A stretch of DNA of 64,000 bases from positions 6,707 through 70,706 of the forward strand of contig CAZLUT010000003.1 in NCBI GenBank assembly GCA_964562805.1. Reading direction: 5' to 3'. The stretch's first letter is position 1. Every line of letters starts with the position of its first letter. Below the pieces are notes generated by a model that was given only the letters and a program-made list of their open reading frames with translations, was not told the DNA's origin and made no database searches. The DNA is from an uncultured bacterium (lineage in GTDB: Bacteria; Omnitrophota; Omnitrophia; Omnitrophales; CAZLUT01). A program made the translations under genes and the position numbers. Below, in pieces: positions 5,907-50,128 of the stretch.

Positions 5907-7133
5907 TTACAAATGAATTCCGGTATTTACGTAAAAAACATTATCTTTGTAATCAAAGGAGTCAAATTTAGAATTACGAAACGCAAAACGATATCCGACT
6001 GAAAAAGTCCACCACTCTTTGAAATCATATTTCAAGGCTGTGTCGATCCTAAACAAGTCATCGACCCTTTTACCCCAACTTCCGGCTATTAAGGTCCTTT
6101 GATCATATTCTTGGCGGGCATAACTTAAATCAGTTGTAAACAGCATGGAAGTCCATAGTTTTTGCTCCAGCCGGGCAAACATCCGGCTTTCGGTATAATT
6201 TGCCACATCAAGAAAAGTCGCCTCTTCTGGTCCATGATAAAGACCTGTTTCAACAGCTGTCCTACTGGTAGCGGCATACCGGAAAGCCATTTCTGCCGAA
6301 AAACCGTTAAACCCGGCTTCATTTTTACCTCGATAGCGTCTGCTTTCCCAGCCCATCTTTGTGATAGTTGTCAGTCTCGGCAAAAGCTGCCCCTTTAAAC
6401 CGCCTCGGACTCGATCAAAATTACCATCACGATCTCTGTTGTTGCGATAAACGATAAACCCATGGGCATACTCGACAAAAGCCTGGGTTTTTTTGGTTAA
6501 TTCAAAAAATAAGGTTGTTCCTATCCGATTAACGTTATAGTCCCACTGCTTATACGTTGAGCTGTTAAAAGTACGGTTAAACAGATGATAATCAAGTTCG
6601 GCTTGCAATTGATTCCACTTGTACCCAATGGTCGTTTGGGTTGTGTTTTCAAGCCTGCCAATTCTTTGTGTAAAGGTCGTTCCGGCTCGGCTTGAAGTCT
6701 GCGCCAATCTATGCTCGGCATTGACATACCAATCTGGAAAAGAAAGATCCACGAGGGCCTTAAAGTATTGATTCTGATCGTTTTGGTCGCTGAACTTGGT
6801 AAAATTTTCAAAATCACAGCGGTAATCGACTTCAATTAAATGATCTCCAAGATTAAGATCGGCAATGATACCTGGTGTTGTCACCCAAATAACATCGTCT
6901 TTTCTGTCATTAGGTTCAAGAAACACATTGGAATCATAGGACATTTGCTGAACAACATAGGGGTGCAGTTTAAGGGGGCCGGCGGTCAGGCGTTTTCTCG
7001 CATCTTTAAGTCCCGTTTTTTCTCCAAAATCATCAACGAATTTGAGCGCAAAAGCTTGCCCGACATTAATAGTTAATGTGCAACATAATAAAATTAGCAA
7101 ATTAGCTATTATTTTTCGGCTATTAAATTTCAT
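5907..7133 (-). CDS. outer-membrane beta-barrel protein associated with the EPS export locus
   Basis: Signal peptide, alternating aromatic/hydrophilic beta-strand pattern throughout, 6 nt upstream of wza; function not assignable from sequence. Confidence 0.45.
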   Translation of the reverse strand: MKFNSRKIIANLLILLCCTLTINVGQAFALKFVDDFGEKTGLKDARKRLTAGPLKLHPYVVQQMSYDSNVFLEPNDRKDDVIWVTTPGIIADLNLGDHLIEVDYRCDFENFTKFSDQNDQNQYFKALVDLSFPDWYVNAEHRLAQTSSRAGTTFTQRIGRLENTTQTTIGYKWNQLQAELDYHLFNRTFNSSTYKQWDYNVNRIGTTLFFELTKKTQAFVEYAHGFIVYRNNRDRDGNFDRVRGGLKGQLLPRLTTITKMGWESRRYRGKNEAGFNGFSAEMAFRYAATSRTAVETGLYHGPEEATFLDVANYTESRMFARLEQKLWTSMLFTTDLSYARQEYDQRTLIAGSWGKRVDDLFRIDTALKYDFKEWWTFSVGYRFAFRNSKFDSFDYKDNVFYVNTGIHL

Positions 7134-23289: not shown

Positions 23290-25074
23290 TTATTCATCTA
23301 CTCTCAAAACCGAAATAAATGCTTCCTGTGGTATATCAACTTTTCCGACCTTTTTCATCCTTTTTTTGCCGGCTTTTTGCTTTTCCCAAAGCTTACGTTT
23401 CCGGGTAATATCGCCGCCATAACATTTTGCCGTTACATCTTTAGAAAGAGCTCGAATACTGTCGCGGGCAATAATGCGGGAGCCGACTGCCGCCTGAATA
23501 ACAACTTCAAAAAGCTGCCTGGGTATCACATCCTTTAGCTTTTCAACTAAAGCACGGCCCCGTTCATACGCGTGCTCTTTATGCACAATACTTGAAAGCG
23601 CGTCAACCGGTTCACTATTAATTAATATATCCAAACGTGATAAGTCGGAAGCGCGAAATCCAATAAAATCATAATTCAAAGATCCATACCCGCGGGTTGC
23701 CGATTTAATTTTGTCGTAAAAATCCAAAACAACTTCACAAAATGGCATTTCATAAGTTAAGACGGCGCGTGTAGAATCTAAATATTCCGTATCCCGGTAA
23801 ATACCCCTTCTATCCTGGCAGAGCTTCATGATAGTTCCGATGTTTTCGGCCGGAATCAAAAGACTTGCCTCAATATAAGGCTCCTCAATGCGCTCGATCT
23901 TATCTTTTGTGGGCAAAAGGCTCGGATTTTCAAGCATTAAAATCTCCCCGTTAGTTTTTGTTACTCTGTAAACAACGCTGGGTGCTGTAATAATTAACTG
24001 GAGATTGAATTCGCGCTCCAAGCGTTCTTGTATGATTTCCATGTGTAAAAGCCCCAAAAATCCGCAGCGAAAACCAAACCCTAAAGACTGTGAAGTTTCA
24101 GCCTCATAAACAAAAGAGGAATCATTCAAACTTAGCTTTTCCAACGCATCCCTTAAAAGCGCGAAATCTTTCGCTGCGATTGGATACATTCCACAAAACA
24201 CCATCGGTTTTGCCTCTTTATAGCCGGGAAGCGGTTTTTTAGCCGGCATTTCTTTTAAAGTAACTGTATCCCCTATTTTTACGTCTTTCACATTCTTAAT
24301 ATTACAGGCAATAAACCCTACCAATCCTGCAGAAAGGCCTTTGACCGGCGTTGGCTGAGGAGCAAAAATACCAATCTCTTCTACTTCATATTCTGTCTTG
24401 TTATTCATCATTAGGATCTTGTCATGCAGCTTTATTTCCCCGTCCACCACCCTTATATAGACAACAACCCCTTTATAAGGGTCGTATTTTGAATCAAAAA
24501 TAAGCGCTTTGAGCGAAGATGCCTTATCGCCTTTAGGTGGAGGAATTTTTTCAATAATCGCGTCTAAAATTTGAAGCGAGCCCTCTCCTGTCTTAGAGCT
24601 TGTTGAAAGCACCTCCTCACCCGTAGTTCCCAAAATATTCTGAATCTCTTTTTTGGTTTTAGGAATATCAGCGTTAGGAAGGTCGATTTTAGTAATAACC
24701 GGGACCATCTCTAAATTTTTCTCCAAAGCCAGATAAAGATTCGACATGGTCTGGGCCTCGACACCTTGAGAGCCATCCACCAAAAGCAGCACTCCTTCAC
24801 AGGCTGCGAAACTTTTTGAAACTTCATAAGTGAAATCAACATGCCCGGGCGTATCGATCAAATTAAGAATATGACCTTTGTATTTAATCTGGACAGCGCG
24901 TGCTTTAATGGTAATACCTCTCTCACGCTCCAGATCCATATCATCCAAGAATTGCTCACGAAATTCCCGCTGGGTGATGGCATGGGTATCGAGAAGCATG
25001 CGATCGGCCAAGGTAGACTTACCATGATCAATATGCGCTGAGATAGAAAAATTACGTATTTTTTTAATATCCAT
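23290..25074 (-). CDS. lepA: elongation factor 4 (translational GTPase LepA)
   Basis: IRNFSISAHIDHGKSTLADR G1 motif, DTPGHVDF, NKIDL, LepA-specific C-terminal domain; full length about 594 aa. Confidence 0.95.
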   Translation of the reverse strand: MDIKKIRNFSISAHIDHGKSTLADRMLLDTHAITQREFREQFLDDMDLERERGITIKARAVQIKYKGHILNLIDTPGHVDFTYEVSKSFAACEGVLLLVDGSQGVEAQTMSNLYLALEKNLEMVPVITKIDLPNADIPKTKKEIQNILGTTGEEVLSTSSKTGEGSLQILDAIIEKIPPPKGDKASSLKALIFDSKYDPYKGVVVYIRVVDGEIKLHDKILMMNNKTEYEVEEIGIFAPQPTPVKGLSAGLVGFIACNIKNVKDVKIGDTVTLKEMPAKKPLPGYKEAKPMVFCGMYPIAAKDFALLRDALEKLSLNDSSFVYEAETSQSLGFGFRCGFLGLLHMEIIQERLEREFNLQLIITAPSVVYRVTKTNGEILMLENPSLLPTKDKIERIEEPYIEASLLIPAENIGTIMKLCQDRRGIYRDTEYLDSTRAVLTYEMPFCEVVLDFYDKIKSATRGYGSLNYDFIGFRASDLSRLDILINSEPVDALSSIVHKEHAYERGRALVEKLKDVIPRQLFEVVIQAAVGSRIIARDSIRALSKDVTAKCYGGDITRKRKLWEKQKAGKKRMKKVGKVDIPQEAFISVLRVDE

Positions 25075-29651: not shown

Positions 29652-30476
29652 ATGTTTATCTACATATCCTTATTATTCGCGGCCTTTGTCTTGCTCTATA
29701 TTTTGACTGGCAAGCTAACGCGTCTCATTAAACGCACGAAACTGCTAAATGCTCCTTTTTCGTTTGAATGGGAAAAAATTTTAGAAAAAAATATTTTCTT
29801 TTACCGCCACCTGCCTCAACACTTTAAAAAAGAGCTTAAGGGAGACATTCAAATTTTTTTAAACGAAAAAAGGTTTAAGGGCTGCGGAGGTCTCAAAATT
29901 ACCGATGAAATCCGCCTGACAATAGCAGCCGAGGCCTGCATCCTTCTTTTAAACCGGAAATCTAAATACTATCCCCATCTATCCACTATTTTTGTATATC
30001 CTCACATCTATGTTGGAGGTGAAAACCGACTCTCGTCCACCGGTATTCCAATCGAAAATAAAAGTGCTCGAGCCGGTGAATCCTGGCATCGAGGCCCTCT
30101 CGTTTTAGCTTGGGATGACGTAAAAAATTCATCAAATCAAAACACTAAAGGGCATAATGTTGTTCTTCACGAATTCGCCCACCAGCTGGATCAGGAAGAT
30201 GGCGAAGCCGACGGCGCCCCCATCCTGCCCAAAACAATGAGATATGCCGAATGGACTCGAGTGTTTAAAAAGGAATACAACCATTTACTAGACGATGTTA
30301 AATTTCAAAGAAAAAATGTGCTGGATTACTACGGGGGGACAAATCCGGCAGAATTTTTTGCAGTTGCTACCGAAACTTTTTTTACCAAACCACAGGAATT
30401 AAACCGGGATGAGCCGGAGCTCTACCAGGAACTCAAAACGTACTACGCCTTAGACCCGCTCAAATGGATCGATTAG
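29652..30476 (+). CDS. MtfA-like zinc metallopeptidase (M90 family)
   Basis: HEFAHQLD HExxH motif with downstream acidic region; size and N-terminal TM consistent with MtfA/DgsA-anti-repressor family. Confidence 0.65.
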   Translation: MFIYISLLFAAFVLLYILTGKLTRLIKRTKLLNAPFSFEWEKILEKNIFFYRHLPQHFKKELKGDIQIFLNEKRFKGCGGLKITDEIRLTIAAEACILLLNRKSKYYPHLSTIFVYPHIYVGGENRLSSTGIPIENKSARAGESWHRGPLVLAWDDVKNSSNQNTKGHNVVLHEFAHQLDQEDGEADGAPILPKTMRYAEWTRVFKKEYNHLLDDVKFQRKNVLDYYGGTNPAEFFAVATETFFTKPQELNRDEPELYQELKTYYALDPLKWID

Positions 30477-30489
30477 GTTTTTAACGGTT

Positions 30490-30684
30490 TTAAAATTCCG
30501 GATATTCAGGTGTATCCCCTGAATATGAAGCGTTGGTATCAGCGTTCAAAAATTCCATCTGGCCGCCGTAATTGCCACCATCTGAAAATTCACCTTCATC
30601 ATTAGGGGTTGGCCCCATACAAGCAGACCCTACCATAGCTAAACTCAACAAAAGCAGAATAAGAACTAACAATCTTTTAATCAT
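30490..30684 (-). CDS. small acidic putative lipoprotein
   Basis: 64 aa, signal peptide ending VGSAC (lipobox-like), acidic mature part. Confidence 0.35.
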   Translation of the reverse strand: MIKRLLVLILLLLSLAMVGSACMGPTPNDEGEFSDGGNYGGQMEFLNADTNASYSGDTPEYPEF

Positions 30685-30814
30685 TTTTATCCTTTCCTGG
30701 ATTAGTAAAAAACAGCCAAATTATACCTTAAATACCGCAACTTCCGACTTTTAAGTTATAAATTTTTATATAAAATGGGTTAACACGCTATAATTGTTTA
30801 AACATCTAAAAAAT

Positions 30815-31888
30815 ATGAAAATAAAACTAATAATCATCTTTCTGCTTTTCCTTCCGCTTTTAAAGCCGGTTTTTACCGCATCAGCCGAACCCAGCGACAC
30901 GGTCGCACCCGGATCATTTGAAGAAGATGATGAAAAAACAATTCGCTCATATGAAACGCTTCTCAAGAAATATCCGGAAAATGAATCTCTTTACATTGAA
31001 TTAAGTAATATTTATCTTCGTACAGAACGCTTGCCGAAAGCTAAAGCATACCTGCAGAAGGTTCTTCTTATTAATCCTCAAAACACGGAAGCTCTGCTTC
31101 TTTTGGGCGACATTCACAGTGCTAATAATGAATATGAAAAAGCTATGGGATATTTTGATAAAGCGCTTCAAAGTCAGGCGGAATTTCCAGATTCGCTACT
31201 GCCGGGTGCTGGCATGCAAAAAAACAAAAAAGAGATCCCTCGAGATTCAAGGTTAAGTTTAGTCGGTATTAAAATTGCCTCGACATTTGATGCTCTGGGG
31301 CAGCCTGAAAAAGGAATACTATACAACGAAAATGCTATCGCCATCAATCCGGACAATCCGGAAGCTTATAAGGGTCTTGGTAAACTCTATAGCCATCTTG
31401 GCAAGTATGAGCTGGCTCTCAATTATTTTCAAGAGGCCTACATGATGGATCCGACTGATTTCGAGTCCTGTCTTAATATCGGAAAAATTCTTTCCCGCCT
31501 AGGCCGTGACGAACGATCAATTATTTATCTTAAAAAATCATATGAATTAAGTCCCGAATCCGTATCAATTCTGGACTATTTGGGACACGTGTATATCAAA
31601 TTAGGAAATTACGACGAAGCAATTAATTATTTTAAGAAGGCTATTAAGGCCGATCCTGAATCAATTAATCATTACAATTACCTGGGAAGTGCTTATTACT
31701 CAATGGGAGAATATGAAAAAGCGATTAAAACATTCCAGGACACAATAAAGATTGATCCAACTAATAGTAAAATTTATGAAAATTTGGGATATATTTTTAA
31801 ATACTTGGGCGAGCCTCGCGAAGCGGATTATTATTTTTCAAAGTATAAAAAACTTTTGGAATCCGAAAAAAAAGATTCTAGCCTTTAA
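30815..31888 (+). CDS. secreted TPR-repeat protein
   Basis: ATG at 30815 gives classic signal peptide MKIKLIIIFLLFLPLLKPVFTASA (track TTG 30794 less likely); at least 7 TPR units with A/Y/L consensus; TATAAT at 30789-30794. Confidence 0.65.
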   Translation: MKIKLIIIFLLFLPLLKPVFTASAEPSDTVAPGSFEEDDEKTIRSYETLLKKYPENESLYIELSNIYLRTERLPKAKAYLQKVLLINPQNTEALLLLGDIHSANNEYEKAMGYFDKALQSQAEFPDSLLPGAGMQKNKKEIPRDSRLSLVGIKIASTFDALGQPEKGILYNENAIAINPDNPEAYKGLGKLYSHLGKYELALNYFQEAYMMDPTDFESCLNIGKILSRLGRDERSIIYLKKSYELSPESVSILDYLGHVYIKLGNYDEAINYFKKAIKADPESINHYNYLGSAYYSMGEYEKAIKTFQDTIKIDPTNSKIYENLGYIFKYLGEPREADYYFSKYKKLLESEKKDSSL

Positions 31889-32237
31889 ATTTTATTCCTT
31901 CCCCGCTTAAAAGTTTCCGTAAATACTCACGTTTGTCACCTTGGATTTCTACGACACCACCCTTAGGTCCTTCGCGATAGGTGCCTCCTGTACCGCACTT
32001 TGATTTTAGGCGCTTTGCCAAATCTTTCAAAAAAGGAATAGACGCCGGCAATTCATCAATAACAGTGACCAGCTTCCCGCCTCTACCCCCGGTCTCAATT
32101 CTTAATTTGGCGACAAAGCTATTTAAATCGAAAGAGTTTTTGAGATTACAAACACACTCCGGCACCAAATGTTTACACTTAGGACATTTCTTGTTTTTGT
32201 CAGAATCTGTTGAATAAACAAGGATGGAATCGCTAAT
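31878..32237 (-). CDS. yciH: translation initiation factor SUI1/YciH homologue with probable AUU start codon and Cys4 insertion
   Basis: C-terminal SUI1 fold (KCGTGGT, VVEIQGDKRE); conserved N-terminal SDSxxLVYST block is encoded upstream of the track's TTG (32168) in the same frame with no ATG/GTG/TTG before the in-frame stop at 32270; Ile codon ATT (32237-32235) aligns with Met1 of E. coli YciH and is preceded by AAGGGT at 6-7 nt. Confidence 0.55.
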   Translation of the reverse strand: MSDSILVYSTDSDKNKKCPKCKHLVPECVCNLKNSFDLNSFVAKLRIETGGRGGKLVTVIDELPASIPFLKDLAKRLKSKCGTGGTYREGPKGGVVEIQGDKREYLRKLLSGEGIKFKG

Positions 32238-32248
32238 AGGTCTACCCT

Positions 32249-33016
32249 TTATGATATGAAACCAAGATTAGTTTTCTTAACCCAACCTGTCTCACCGCTC
32301 GGTAAATCAATTCGATACCAATCGCCTGACTGATCCACAGCCTTTACCGCTACGCCTTCGGCTAGGTGAAAAGCTGCTTTTTCGTGATTTGAAGGACCGT
32401 ACCTGACTTCTGTTTTTGAGGTTAACACGATAGCGTCCTTATAACGAAGATCATATAACTTGAATCCCAAAAGCACTAAGCTTGCTATTAAGAGTGTTAG
32501 AAAAAGGCGCCGGCCTCTATAGATCCATCTCCGCTGTTTAAAAAAACGTAAAATAGTAAAAAACAAGACTCCGATATAAAAAATCAGGGCAAGATTAATA
32601 ACCTCCCCCTTCCTGAAATACCGGGATTGCTTAATGAACCATTTAATAACAACAGGGGTTGAATCTTCGATTTGAAGCGGCACTTGAGAATCAGCTAATT
32701 TTAAATTAGCCCGAATATCTTTTGATCTGGGGTCAAGTCTTAATGCTTTCTGATAATTTAATATCGCAAGACCCAATTTCTTCGATTTATAGTAAGCATC
32801 ACCCAAATTGTAATAAATATCGGGATCACGGGACTTTTTTGAGAGCATCTTTTCATACATTTCGATGGCCCCTTCATAATCCTTCTCCTGATACATCTTG
32901 CCGGCTTCGTCCCATTCCAGCGTTGGTGAAACTTTCATAAGCTCGCAGGCGCCGCTCGCTGCCCCTAAAAGAACAATCGCACCCGCTAAAATCAAACTAC
33001 CGAATCTTTTTTTCAA
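32249..33016 (-). CDS. BatE-like protein (TPR repeats + C-terminal SH3b domain)
   Basis: Signal peptide, 2-3 TPR units, TM segments, C-terminal SH3b-like GDWYRIDLPSGETGWVKK. Confidence 0.55.
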   Translation of the reverse strand: MKKRFGSLILAGAIVLLGAASGACELMKVSPTLEWDEAGKMYQEKDYEGAIEMYEKMLSKKSRDPDIYYNLGDAYYKSKKLGLAILNYQKALRLDPRSKDIRANLKLADSQVPLQIEDSTPVVIKWFIKQSRYFRKGEVINLALIFYIGVLFFTILRFFKQRRWIYRGRRLFLTLLIASLVLLGFKLYDLRYKDAIVLTSKTEVRYGPSNHEKAAFHLAEGVAVKAVDQSGDWYRIDLPSGETGWVKKTNLGFIS

Positions 33017-48892: not shown

Positions 48893-50128
48893 TTAAAAAT
48901 AAGATTCGAGCCACTCGCGAGCTTGAGAAGTCGCACGTGAAAGAAAGTTTTGGGTAGCTCTTTGCTGTTTAAGCGTTTTAAATGCCGCTTGCTGATGGCG
49001 GATTGCGCCCCAGACTGCGGTAAATTGCGAATTCCAATACTGCGGCTCGCTTGTTTCGACCCCAAAATTCTTAGGATTACCAAAACGGGTCCGAATTGAA
49101 AATCGATCCTCGATCTCTTCCAAGAGACCTTCCAGCTTTGAACCGCCGCCAGAAATTACGATTTCTGACAATCTTCCTTGTCCTTTCGCCTCAGCAATCT
49201 CTTTTTCAAGTCTTTGCCAAAAAGGAGTCAAATTTTTACTTAGAAATTCTCGCAATTGTCCGCGCTTTAAGGTTTCGATGCCGTATTCATTCCGTGAAAT
49301 AGGGAGGCTTTCTTCATCAGTAGGGCCCGGCAGAAGAGTTCCAAATTCCTCTTTGAGCCGGCGGGCTTCACCGACCTTTAAATGATAACGATCAATTAAA
49401 TTTTGGGTTAAAGCATCGCACCCCCATGAGAAAGAATTGGAATAGCAAAGAATATTGTCTTTAAAATAGATAAGATCCGTTGCATAGCCGCCAATATCCA
49501 TCAAAAGGACTCCATCTTTTTTTTCATCCTCCTCCAGAACACAGTATGACGCCGAAAACGCTTTGGGTATTATCGTCTTCAGCTCGGCTTCGCATCGGTC
49601 AAACAGTTTAGTCAAATTCCGATAGACCTCAGAGCTGATCGTAAAAATACGAAGACTGACGCCAAGTCTCTCCGCTTCTAAATCCAGCGGGTTTTGTATC
49701 CCCCGGGAATCATTGACCCAGTATTCTTGCGGAACGCTTTGAATAATTGTTTCTTTGAGCGGTACCATCGACACATTGCGTGTTTGACGAATGACTTCAT
49801 CCAAGTCGTCCGTCTGAATTGTATGTTTCGCTGTCGAATAAAAAATAGAGCTCGCGAAAGAATATCCTTTAATATCGGGGGAAGATAAAACTAGGGTGAT
49901 TTCGGGAAAATTGTCCAATCCGGCATCGTCAAAAAGACTTCGTGCCTCGCGGGAAGCTAGCTCTAGATCACTGATTCTGCCATGGTAAAAACCTTGCGAA
50001 GAAACCGCTTTAAAATAAATTAGTTTGGGATGGGCTAAATTGGAAAAATCAACACGAGCCAGCACAAACTTGCTGGCGCCCAAAAAAAAATAATTATTAA
50101 TTTTGCTATTTTTAAAGTTTAAAGCCAT
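48893..50128 (-). CDS. ftsA: cell division protein FtsA
   Basis: Actin-fold blocks VPQEYWVND, LLMDIGGYATD, ISGGGSKLEGL and C-terminal amphipathic helix. Confidence 0.85.
   Translation of the reverse strand: MALNFKNSKINNYFFLGASKFVLARVDFSNLAHPKLIYFKAVSSQGFYHGRISDLELASREARSLFDDAGLDNFPEITLVLSSPDIKGYSFASSIFYSTAKHTIQTDDLDEVIRQTRNVSMVPLKETIIQSVPQEYWVNDSRGIQNPLDLEAERLGVSLRIFTISSEVYRNLTKLFDRCEAELKTIIPKAFSASYCVLEEDEKKDGVLLMDIGGYATDLIYFKDNILCYSNSFSWGCDALTQNLIDRYHLKVGEARRLKEEFGTLLPGPTDEESLPISRNEYGIETLKRGQLREFLSKNLTPFWQRLEKEIAEAKGQGRLSEIVISGGGSKLEGLLEEIEDRFSIRTRFGNPKNFGVETSEPQYWNSQFTAVWGAIRHQQAAFKTLKQQRATQNFLSRATSQAREWLESYF

Follow-up and report, generated by a model that had tools for sequence, protein, structure and literature searches.

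A plausible AUU start codon for a SUI1-family protein with a predicted zinc knuckle in an uncultured Omnitrophales bacterium

At which codon is translation of the yciH-like gene of an uncultured Omnitrophales bacterium (Omnitrophota; Omnitrophia; Omnitrophales; CAZLUT01) initiated? The gene, which encodes a homolog of the translation factors YciH and SUI1/eIF1, lies on the minus strand of a 64,000-nucleotide stretch of DNA (positions 6,707 to 70,706 of contig CAZLUT010000003.1, assembly GCA_964562805.1), which we refer to in its full length as the window. Its frame is open from the stop codon TAA at 32270-32268 down to the stop codon TAG at 31880-31878, and the 33 codons between that TAA and the TTG at 32168 include no ATG, GTG or TTG. 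The initial annotation of this DNA, made from the letters alone, had placed the start at an ATT triplet within this extension (32237-32235) and had pointed to infC, the gene for initiation factor 3 (IF3), as the famous case of AUU initiation; we found the frame, its boundaries, the lack of a canonical start and all the other coordinates given there to be correct. We put the probability at about 0.6 that the gene encodes an intact, 119-amino acid bacterial SUI1/eIF1-family protein of the long, aIF1-like type, which would be initiated at ATT 32237. The correction of the annotated protein is well supported; the AUU start is plausible.

The 33 open codons before the first canonical start make this gene an outlier in the window, the real genes of which have a median of 4 such codons, and no comparable open stretch before the first canonical start was found in any of the window's other real genes. 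By construction, a listing of open reading frames (ORFs) takes as the start the first canonical codon that follows a stop, so that the gene appears there as 31878..32168, with 96 amino acids. Read beyond this limit, the frame translates as SWFHIIKGRP-ISDSILVYSTDSDKNKKCPKCKH-LVPECVC..., and the complete open frame after the TAA at 32270-32268 begins with SWFHIIKGRPISDSILVYSTDSDKNKKCPKCKHLVPECVCN... The features on which the argument rests are the following.

31878..32237, minus strand: full-length yciH/aIF1-like coding sequence as read from ATT, 119 amino acids plus the TAG stop codon (translation, Pfam, PRK06824, homologs)
32235..32237, minus strand: proposed initiation codon ATT, aligned with Met1 of the family (the same in contigs L001-L006 and L090, introduced below)
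32244..32249, minus strand: Shine-Dalgarno-like AAGGGT, which overlaps the end of the upstream TAA by its first A (-5.2 kcal/mol with a generic anti-Shine-Dalgarno sequence)
32208..32222, minus strand: LVYST block, residues 6-10 (L6, V7 and S9 invariant; Y8 and T10 at least 90% conserved)
32148..32186, minus strand: Cys4 motif C18-x2-C21-x6-C28-x-C30, a predicted zinc knuckle (all four Cys invariant in an alignment of 17 sequences)
32163..32168, minus strand: TTG (32168-32166) and GTG (32165-32163), where gene callers place the start, between Cys21 and Cys28 (weak Shine-Dalgarno pairing)
31890..32105, minus strand: SUI1 domain, residues 45-116 (Pfam; match to PDB entry 1d1r; structure model)
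32249..32251, minus strand: TAA stop codon of the BatE-like gene, 11 nt before ATT, giving a stop-Shine-Dalgarno-start geometry (sequence)
32249..33016, minus strand: BatE-like TPR and SH3 gene, 255 amino acids, upstream and in a different frame (Pfam TPR_11, SH3_4)

The part of the frame that the ORF listing leaves out encodes a conserved N-terminus. Among 5.8 billion proteins searched, thousands of homologs were found; nearly all of the best 120 are 117-128 amino acids long and cover 96-100% of the query as started from ATT, and those that we inspected begin with M-x(2-6)-LVYSTDP..NKKCPKCK.L..C.C. In one homolog (P0013; MSDSKLVYSTDPALNKKCPKCKELLPACTC; E=8e-14), the first 30 residues show 70% identity to residues 1-30 of the query. 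When 17 sequences were aligned, Ile1 fell into the Met1 column of most of them, and L6, V7, S9, D11, N15, C18, C21, C28 and C30 were invariant. Upstream of the TTG, 12 of the 13 conserved columns (at least 80%) are retained, as against 40 of the 43 in the remaining protein; thus, the 23 residues left out by the annotation show no sign of decay. The alignment bears out both the conserved block upstream of the TTG and the placement of ATT at the Met1 position, as originally proposed. The distance from ATT to LVYST, five codons, is the most frequent one in a set of 80 family loci that we collected from GTDB species genomes. Of the four invariant Cys residues, a protein started at the TTG or the GTG would retain just two.

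The translation signals favor the same codon. The AAGGGT that overlaps the BatE-like stop codon, already seen in the initial annotation, stands 6 nt (from its T) or 7 nt (from its last G) before ATT, and no other candidate start has a decent Shine-Dalgarno match nearby. We calculated duplex energies for the 22 nt before each start against a generic anti-Shine-Dalgarno sequence, which may not match the host's own 16S 3′ end. While the value before ATT is typical for genes of the window, pairing amounts to -1.8 kcal/mol before TTG 32168 and GTG 32165, and to -2.7 kcal/mol before the in-frame near-cognate codons ATC 32255 and ATA 32252. The related sequence AAAGGGT also precedes the ATG of the ORF at 48893..50128. 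Folding of the RNA around the start gave no significant structure (z=-0.04). An Rfam match to L20_leader on the minus strand (32391-32210) was rejected as due to chance: it scores 24 bits against a gathering threshold of 58.7, contains a 69-nt insertion and broken pairs, and lies mostly within the BatE coding sequence. The L20 leader is an element ahead of infC in Firmicutes. Given the conserved N-terminus without a canonical start, the Shine-Dalgarno match at ATT and the splitting of the knuckle by a start at TTG or GTG, AUU initiation is the best reading of the locus.

The ATT is not peculiar to one assembly. The locus is present on the Joint Genome Institute (JGI) contig Ga0115649_1000697 (L001) and on six more (L002-L006 and L090), obtained from JGI samples 3300007511, 3300007510 and 3300008954 and from ENA assemblies of SAMN10231912-14. 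Their identity to the window is 99.8% or more (for L090, the comparison covered the start only), and the start region, ...TCATAAAGGGTAGACCTATTAGCGAT..., is unchanged in L001-L006 and L090, in answer to the concern raised initially that a sequencing error might have created or removed a start codon. Since the same ATT occurs in the assemblies of several samples, it is not a sequencing error. The database calls for the gene (P0001, P0121, P0122 and P0123) comprise 95-96 amino acids and start at the TTG or the adjacent GTG, as is expected of gene callers where no canonical start lies upstream. The locus has the marks of a gene with a non-canonical (AUU) start: a conserved N-terminus upstream of all canonical starts, a near-cognate codon in the Met1 column, a ribosome-binding site and an ATT that is no sequence error. 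One of the contigs, L006, represents a strain variant, the only four mismatches of which in 2.1 kb fall within about 20 nt (L006:1066-1090; window positions about 32020-32045; yciH codons 66-73). Each of them alters the protein (P66A, L68F, A73G), and the rest of the 2.1 kb is free of synonymous differences. The samples, by their names (SUTE22-1, SAMN102319xx), would come from an oxygen-depleted marine water column, perhaps the redox-cline of the Cariaco Basin.

What kind of protein would be made from this start? Pfam SUI1 (PF01253) aligns with residues 45-116 over profile positions 7-77 of 77 and scores 55.6 bits, above its cutoff of 25.5. An end-to-end alignment was obtained with PRK06824 of NCBIfam ("translation initiation factor Sui1"), in which residues 3-118 match profile positions 9-117 of 121, though the score of 92.1 bits remains below the equivalog cutoff of 145 bits. 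The two models for E. coli-type YciH, TIGR01158 and PRK09019, give 67.2 and 57.2 bits (cutoffs of 111.65 and 142 bits, respectively) and align from residue 38-40 onward only. PRK06824 is the best-fitting named model, and the protein is a divergent representative of the long bacterial SUI1 subfamily that bears the knuckle. An AlphaFold2 model shows a confident alpha/beta domain at residues 42-118, with a predicted local distance difference test (pLDDT) score of 81-87 across the SUI1 domain (41-119); residues 1-40 are uninformative (pLDDT about 47-57), as expected without metal, none having been modeled. A search of the PDB also returned many weak matches to tau repeats from a KSKCGSxGxxxxxPGGGxVEI-like stretch (residues 72-111), which are compositional and not meaningful.

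Ahead of the SUI1 domain, four cysteines (C18, C21, C28 and C30) stand in zinc-knuckle register, CxxC-x6-CxC. The initial annotation had recognized this CPKC...CVC motif, with a spacing of seven residues where there are six, and had taken it for an insertion absent from E. coli YciH. The latter view does not hold: the four Cys are invariant in the 17-sequence alignment, the motif is present in most of the 80 bacterial loci, and a phmmer search of the PDB aligned query residues 18-108, beginning at C18, with residues 5-87 of Methanocaldococcus jannaschii aIF1 (4mo0), beginning at C5 (CPRCGLPKELCVC), in the same CxxC-x6-CxC register. In many archaeal aIF1 proteins, and in DENR, the N-terminal domain is known to carry a zinc site before the SUI1 fold (PMC7114459). 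The Cys4 motif of the present protein is a predicted zinc knuckle of the aIF1 type. Given that the knuckle is common in the 80 loci and that the E. coli profiles align only from residue 38-40, E. coli-type YciH is the form without the knuckle, and the knuckle is the widespread state in the data set rather than an insertion in this protein. The knuckle-then-SUI1 architecture is the same in archaeal aIF1 (4mo0) and in the PRK06824 subfamily, whereas the LVYST tail before the knuckle is bacterial and sets these proteins apart from archaeal aIF1. Hundreds of bacterial homologs with about 120 residues have M-x(2-6)-LVYSTDP..N..CP.C in common. E. coli YciH (PDB 1d1r) shares the SUI1 domain (E=6e-11) but not the knuckle region; its N-terminus presumably also has the SDSxxLVYST block. 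In five metagenome-assembled genomes (MAGs) of Bdellovibrio-like bacteria (L063, L065, L066, L069 and L077), LVYS(D/T)DP is kept, and the place of the knuckle is taken by a charged linker that is about as long and has no Cys.

Is the ATT start a property of the family? Among the 80 loci, no intact gene lacks a canonical start. The intact genes start with ATG in the large majority, with GTG in about eight and with TTG in two or three, three to ten codons before LVYST; a few loci have a homologous longer N-terminal extension instead. GTG and TTG together account for about 15% of the family's starts, an ordinary share for bacteria, and weak starts are not enriched. The gene thus differs from the PRK06824 subfamily, in which all other members examined have ATG, GTG or TTG. 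A scan of metagenomes with the pattern ATH-N12-LVYS[ST][DN]-x3-N-x2-C-x2-C returned a single contig (L087), where a GTG directly precedes the ATT, and hence no second case; the scan covered the five-codon geometry only, did not return the window's own contig and was not exhaustive. On L087, a high-GC contig, the region downstream of the yciH homolog (L087:1280-1640) consists of near-identical short repeats, reading AAGKRCEAAGRRCEA... on one strand, with both strands open. Two of the family loci have disrupted N-termini, one with an in-frame stop between the N-terminal block and SUI1 (L067:1480-1620) and one with a scrambled or frameshifted N-terminus (L072:1414-1530); these are pseudogenes or MAG assembly errors.

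Internal truncation of the kind seen in the database calls for this gene does recur. In a set of 150 representatives (at 50% identity), four have their start within the knuckle, as does the annotated product of the window. P0159, P0156 and P0199 were considered as ATT-type cases and rejected as gene-caller errors, an ATG or a GTG being present upstream in the DNA; the knuckle-truncated P0150 was not traced to DNA and is left out of the three inspected truncated calls. In L091:457-819, L095:709-1074 and L096:579-920, the yciH call is truncated at an internal ATG, TTG or GTG in the knuckle, with a canonical start 20-25 codons upstream. Such truncation looks like a recurrent annotation artifact of the yciH family. 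There are also SUI1-only short forms of about 83-86 amino acids, namely P0164, P0167, P0178 and one from an Omnitrophica MAG (L071:141-389). The last is genuinely short: stops lie upstream, coding potential for LVYST and the Cys4 motif is absent in all frames, and the ORF starts just before the domain.

Nor did we find the ATT in relatives. The protein database contains no yciH homolog between 100% and 60% identity. The LepA encoded in the window (23290-25074) is about 70% identical to that of Candidatus Omnitrophota MAGs and 75-80% identical to that of a few other contigs. One of these, L097 (LepA 80%), is syntenic with the window over a stretch that begins with the genes for the M48 peptidase, BatD and BatE and continues with trpBA, ruvX, rpe and lepA; yciH is absent at its syntenic site, which holds a Rieske gene and a gene for a 211-amino acid protein (L097:3627-5432). 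In the window, the segment between BatE and trpB (29652-32249) carries yciH, a convergent gene for a 364-amino acid TPR protein, a 64-amino acid ORF and Peptidase_M90, and is lineage-specific. The contig with the nearest BatE-like relative (L088, 49%) has a response regulator gene downstream and no yciH. L098 also lacks yciH, but this contig ends before the syntenic site. The inspection of orthologs in related genomes for ATT, ATA or ATC, suggested initially, thus found none, as no relative examined carries an ortholog, and conservation of the non-canonical start among orthologs, as in infC, was not observed. The ATT start is a singleton of one near-clonal population and not a trait of the YciH family. 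With one such population and no ortholog, the lineage lacks the evolutionary depth that would reveal the age of the ATT or selection on it.

The surroundings of the gene suggest how it may be translated. It is the last of a BatD/BatE-like cluster: the BatE-like gene is its probable co-transcribed partner, and the ORF preceding the BatE-like gene carries a BatD domain. Most likely, ribosomes would be recruited by AAGGGU or handed over from termination at the BatE-like UAA, and fMet-tRNA would then initiate on AUU. Judging from the literature and by analogy with E. coli, the yield would lie several-fold to about 100-fold under that of AUG and be sensitive to IF3. In E. coli reporters, AUU initiation has been found to reach about 1-2% of that at AUG (bioRxiv 10.1101/063800); in other work AUU was 6-8-fold below AUG, and 4-fold below it in the UAA-GGU-AUU junction of infC (PMC3592434). 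The thrS-infC junction is similar to the present one in that stop codon, Shine-Dalgarno sequence and AUU follow upon an upstream gene, and reinitiation and de novo initiation contribute to it about equally (PMC3592434). We propose that the full-length protein, consisting of the LVYST tail, the CxxC-x6-CxC knuckle and the SUI1 domain, is made from AUU at low efficiency, with coupling to BatE-like termination probably helping; after removal of Met, it would begin with SDSILVYSTDSDK. In the simplest view, the ATT would have arisen from an ancestral ATG by a single G-to-T change in this lineage. That AUU is actually used, and to what level, we infer from the sequence. A scan for promoters and terminators gave no signal beyond shuffled expectation. 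At the other end of the gene, the 3′ ends of yciH and of the convergent 364-amino acid TPR gene (30794..31888, plus strand) overlap by 11 nt (31878-31888), and no terminator-like hairpin was found between the two.

We found no report of a non-canonical start for YciH in the literature searched, and yciH of E. coli is not known to have one. Isolated non-canonical starts have been proven in other bacterial genes (PMC2830850). In infC and pcnB, as here, AUU is the sole possible start of a conserved N-terminus. Likewise, Deinococcus dnaA (ATC) and rpsL (CTG) (PMC2830850) and Enterococcus faecalis ebpA (ATT) (PMC4447247) have a conserved N-terminus upstream of the annotated start with only near-cognate codons available; they differ from the present gene in having peptide or reporter support, and the Deinococcus starts are also conserved in sister species. 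With infC the likeness extends to the product, a factor of the small-subunit P site. Reciprocal activities of eIF1, IF3 and YciH were reportedly described by Lomakin et al. in 2006. The difference is that many bacteria share the non-canonical start of infC (PMC2830850), which is IF3-dependent by experiment, whereas the ATT of this yciH is a singleton known from sequence.

Among the other explanations, the one that we take most seriously, while holding it to be unlikely, is that an ATG was recently lost to ATT and that the gene is decaying or hypomorphic, with no adaptive meaning and with an N-terminus that is intact for lack of time. Because AUU leaks, this explanation departs from AUU initiation of an intact gene in significance and not in mechanism. 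It is in keeping with the lack of evolutionary depth among nearly identical contigs, with the solitary occurrence of the ATT in the family and with the disrupted N-termini of L067 (in-frame stop) and L072 (frameshift); the absence of yciH from the nearest relative's syntenic site implies that the gene is dispensable in the lineage, and the sole strain variation in 2.1 kb consists of three clustered amino acid changes within yciH. However, the ORF is whole, with no stop, frameshift or lost invariant residue, its Shine-Dalgarno sequence has been kept, and an AUU start is leaky, not dead. We give roughly half as much credence to internal initiation at TTG 32168 or GTG 32165, which would yield essentially the SUI1 domain (95-96 amino acids) and make the upstream homology a relic. 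These are the only canonical start codons of the frame, SUI1-only proteins of 83-91 amino acids occur in nature, one of them in Omnitrophica, and in the model the SUI1 domain (42-118) folds alone while residues 1-40 have low confidence. Set against this are the poor Shine-Dalgarno pairing (-1.8 kcal/mol), the position of these codons inside the knuckle, which would leave an orphan half-site, ECVC, the undecayed state of the 23 codons upstream, and the occurrence of the same truncated call as a known artifact in three members with canonical starts upstream.

The frame is open from 32267 and lies at -1 relative to BatE, and could thus begin at the near-cognate ATC 32255 or ATA 32252, or be read as a BatE-YciH fusion by -1 frameshifting. 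We regard either event as highly improbable, as only the open frame speaks for it: the two codons lack a Shine-Dalgarno sequence (-2.7 kcal/mol) and would extend the protein, from within the BatE coding sequence, by residues that most homologs do not have, and for a fusion, by inspection, no X-XXY-YYZ slippery site is present in CTTGGTTTCATATCATAA, nor is the RNA structure significant. An error of sequencing or assembly that turned ATG into ATT, a single base away from the family consensus, is effectively refuted by the identical start in JGI and ENA assemblies, including the distinguishable strain variant L006, and by the database calls for the cluster, all of which are truncated to 95-96 amino acids. 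AUU initiation of an intact gene has its own weak points. With all copies at least 99.8% identical, a recent loss of the start codon would look alike; no second ATT case was found in the family; the existence of natural SUI1-only forms means that a product of the internal TTG or GTG could be functional; and the Shine-Dalgarno match is modest and was scored against a generic anti-Shine-Dalgarno sequence that is perhaps not the host's.

If the AUU start were kept by selection, synthesis of this eIF1/aIF1 homolog could read out the stringency of initiation. Abundant IF3 or YciH, acting at the same 30S site, would reject the AUU and lower the production of YciH, and the gene would be a bacterial counterpart of the autoregulation of infC and of the poor-context autoregulation of eukaryotic eIF1. 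We think this doubtful, even more so than internal initiation. The infC-like significance that the initial annotation saw in the start found no backing, in that every other family locus examined has a canonical start and weak starts are not enriched; an infC-like regulatory role is unsupported. An AUU on an eIF1 homolog makes an attractive parallel to infC and eIF1 autoregulation; confined to a single near-clonal population and without recurrence, it is for now a curiosity.

For the family, the consequences lie in the N-terminus. Every database copy of this protein comprises 95-96 amino acids and lacks half of the predicted zinc knuckle. Members of the family with normal starts are truncated as well, so annotations of the family need homology-guided correction of their starts. 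The Cys4 knuckle itself, in our data set, is common to a large bacterial SUI1 subfamily and archaeal aIF1.

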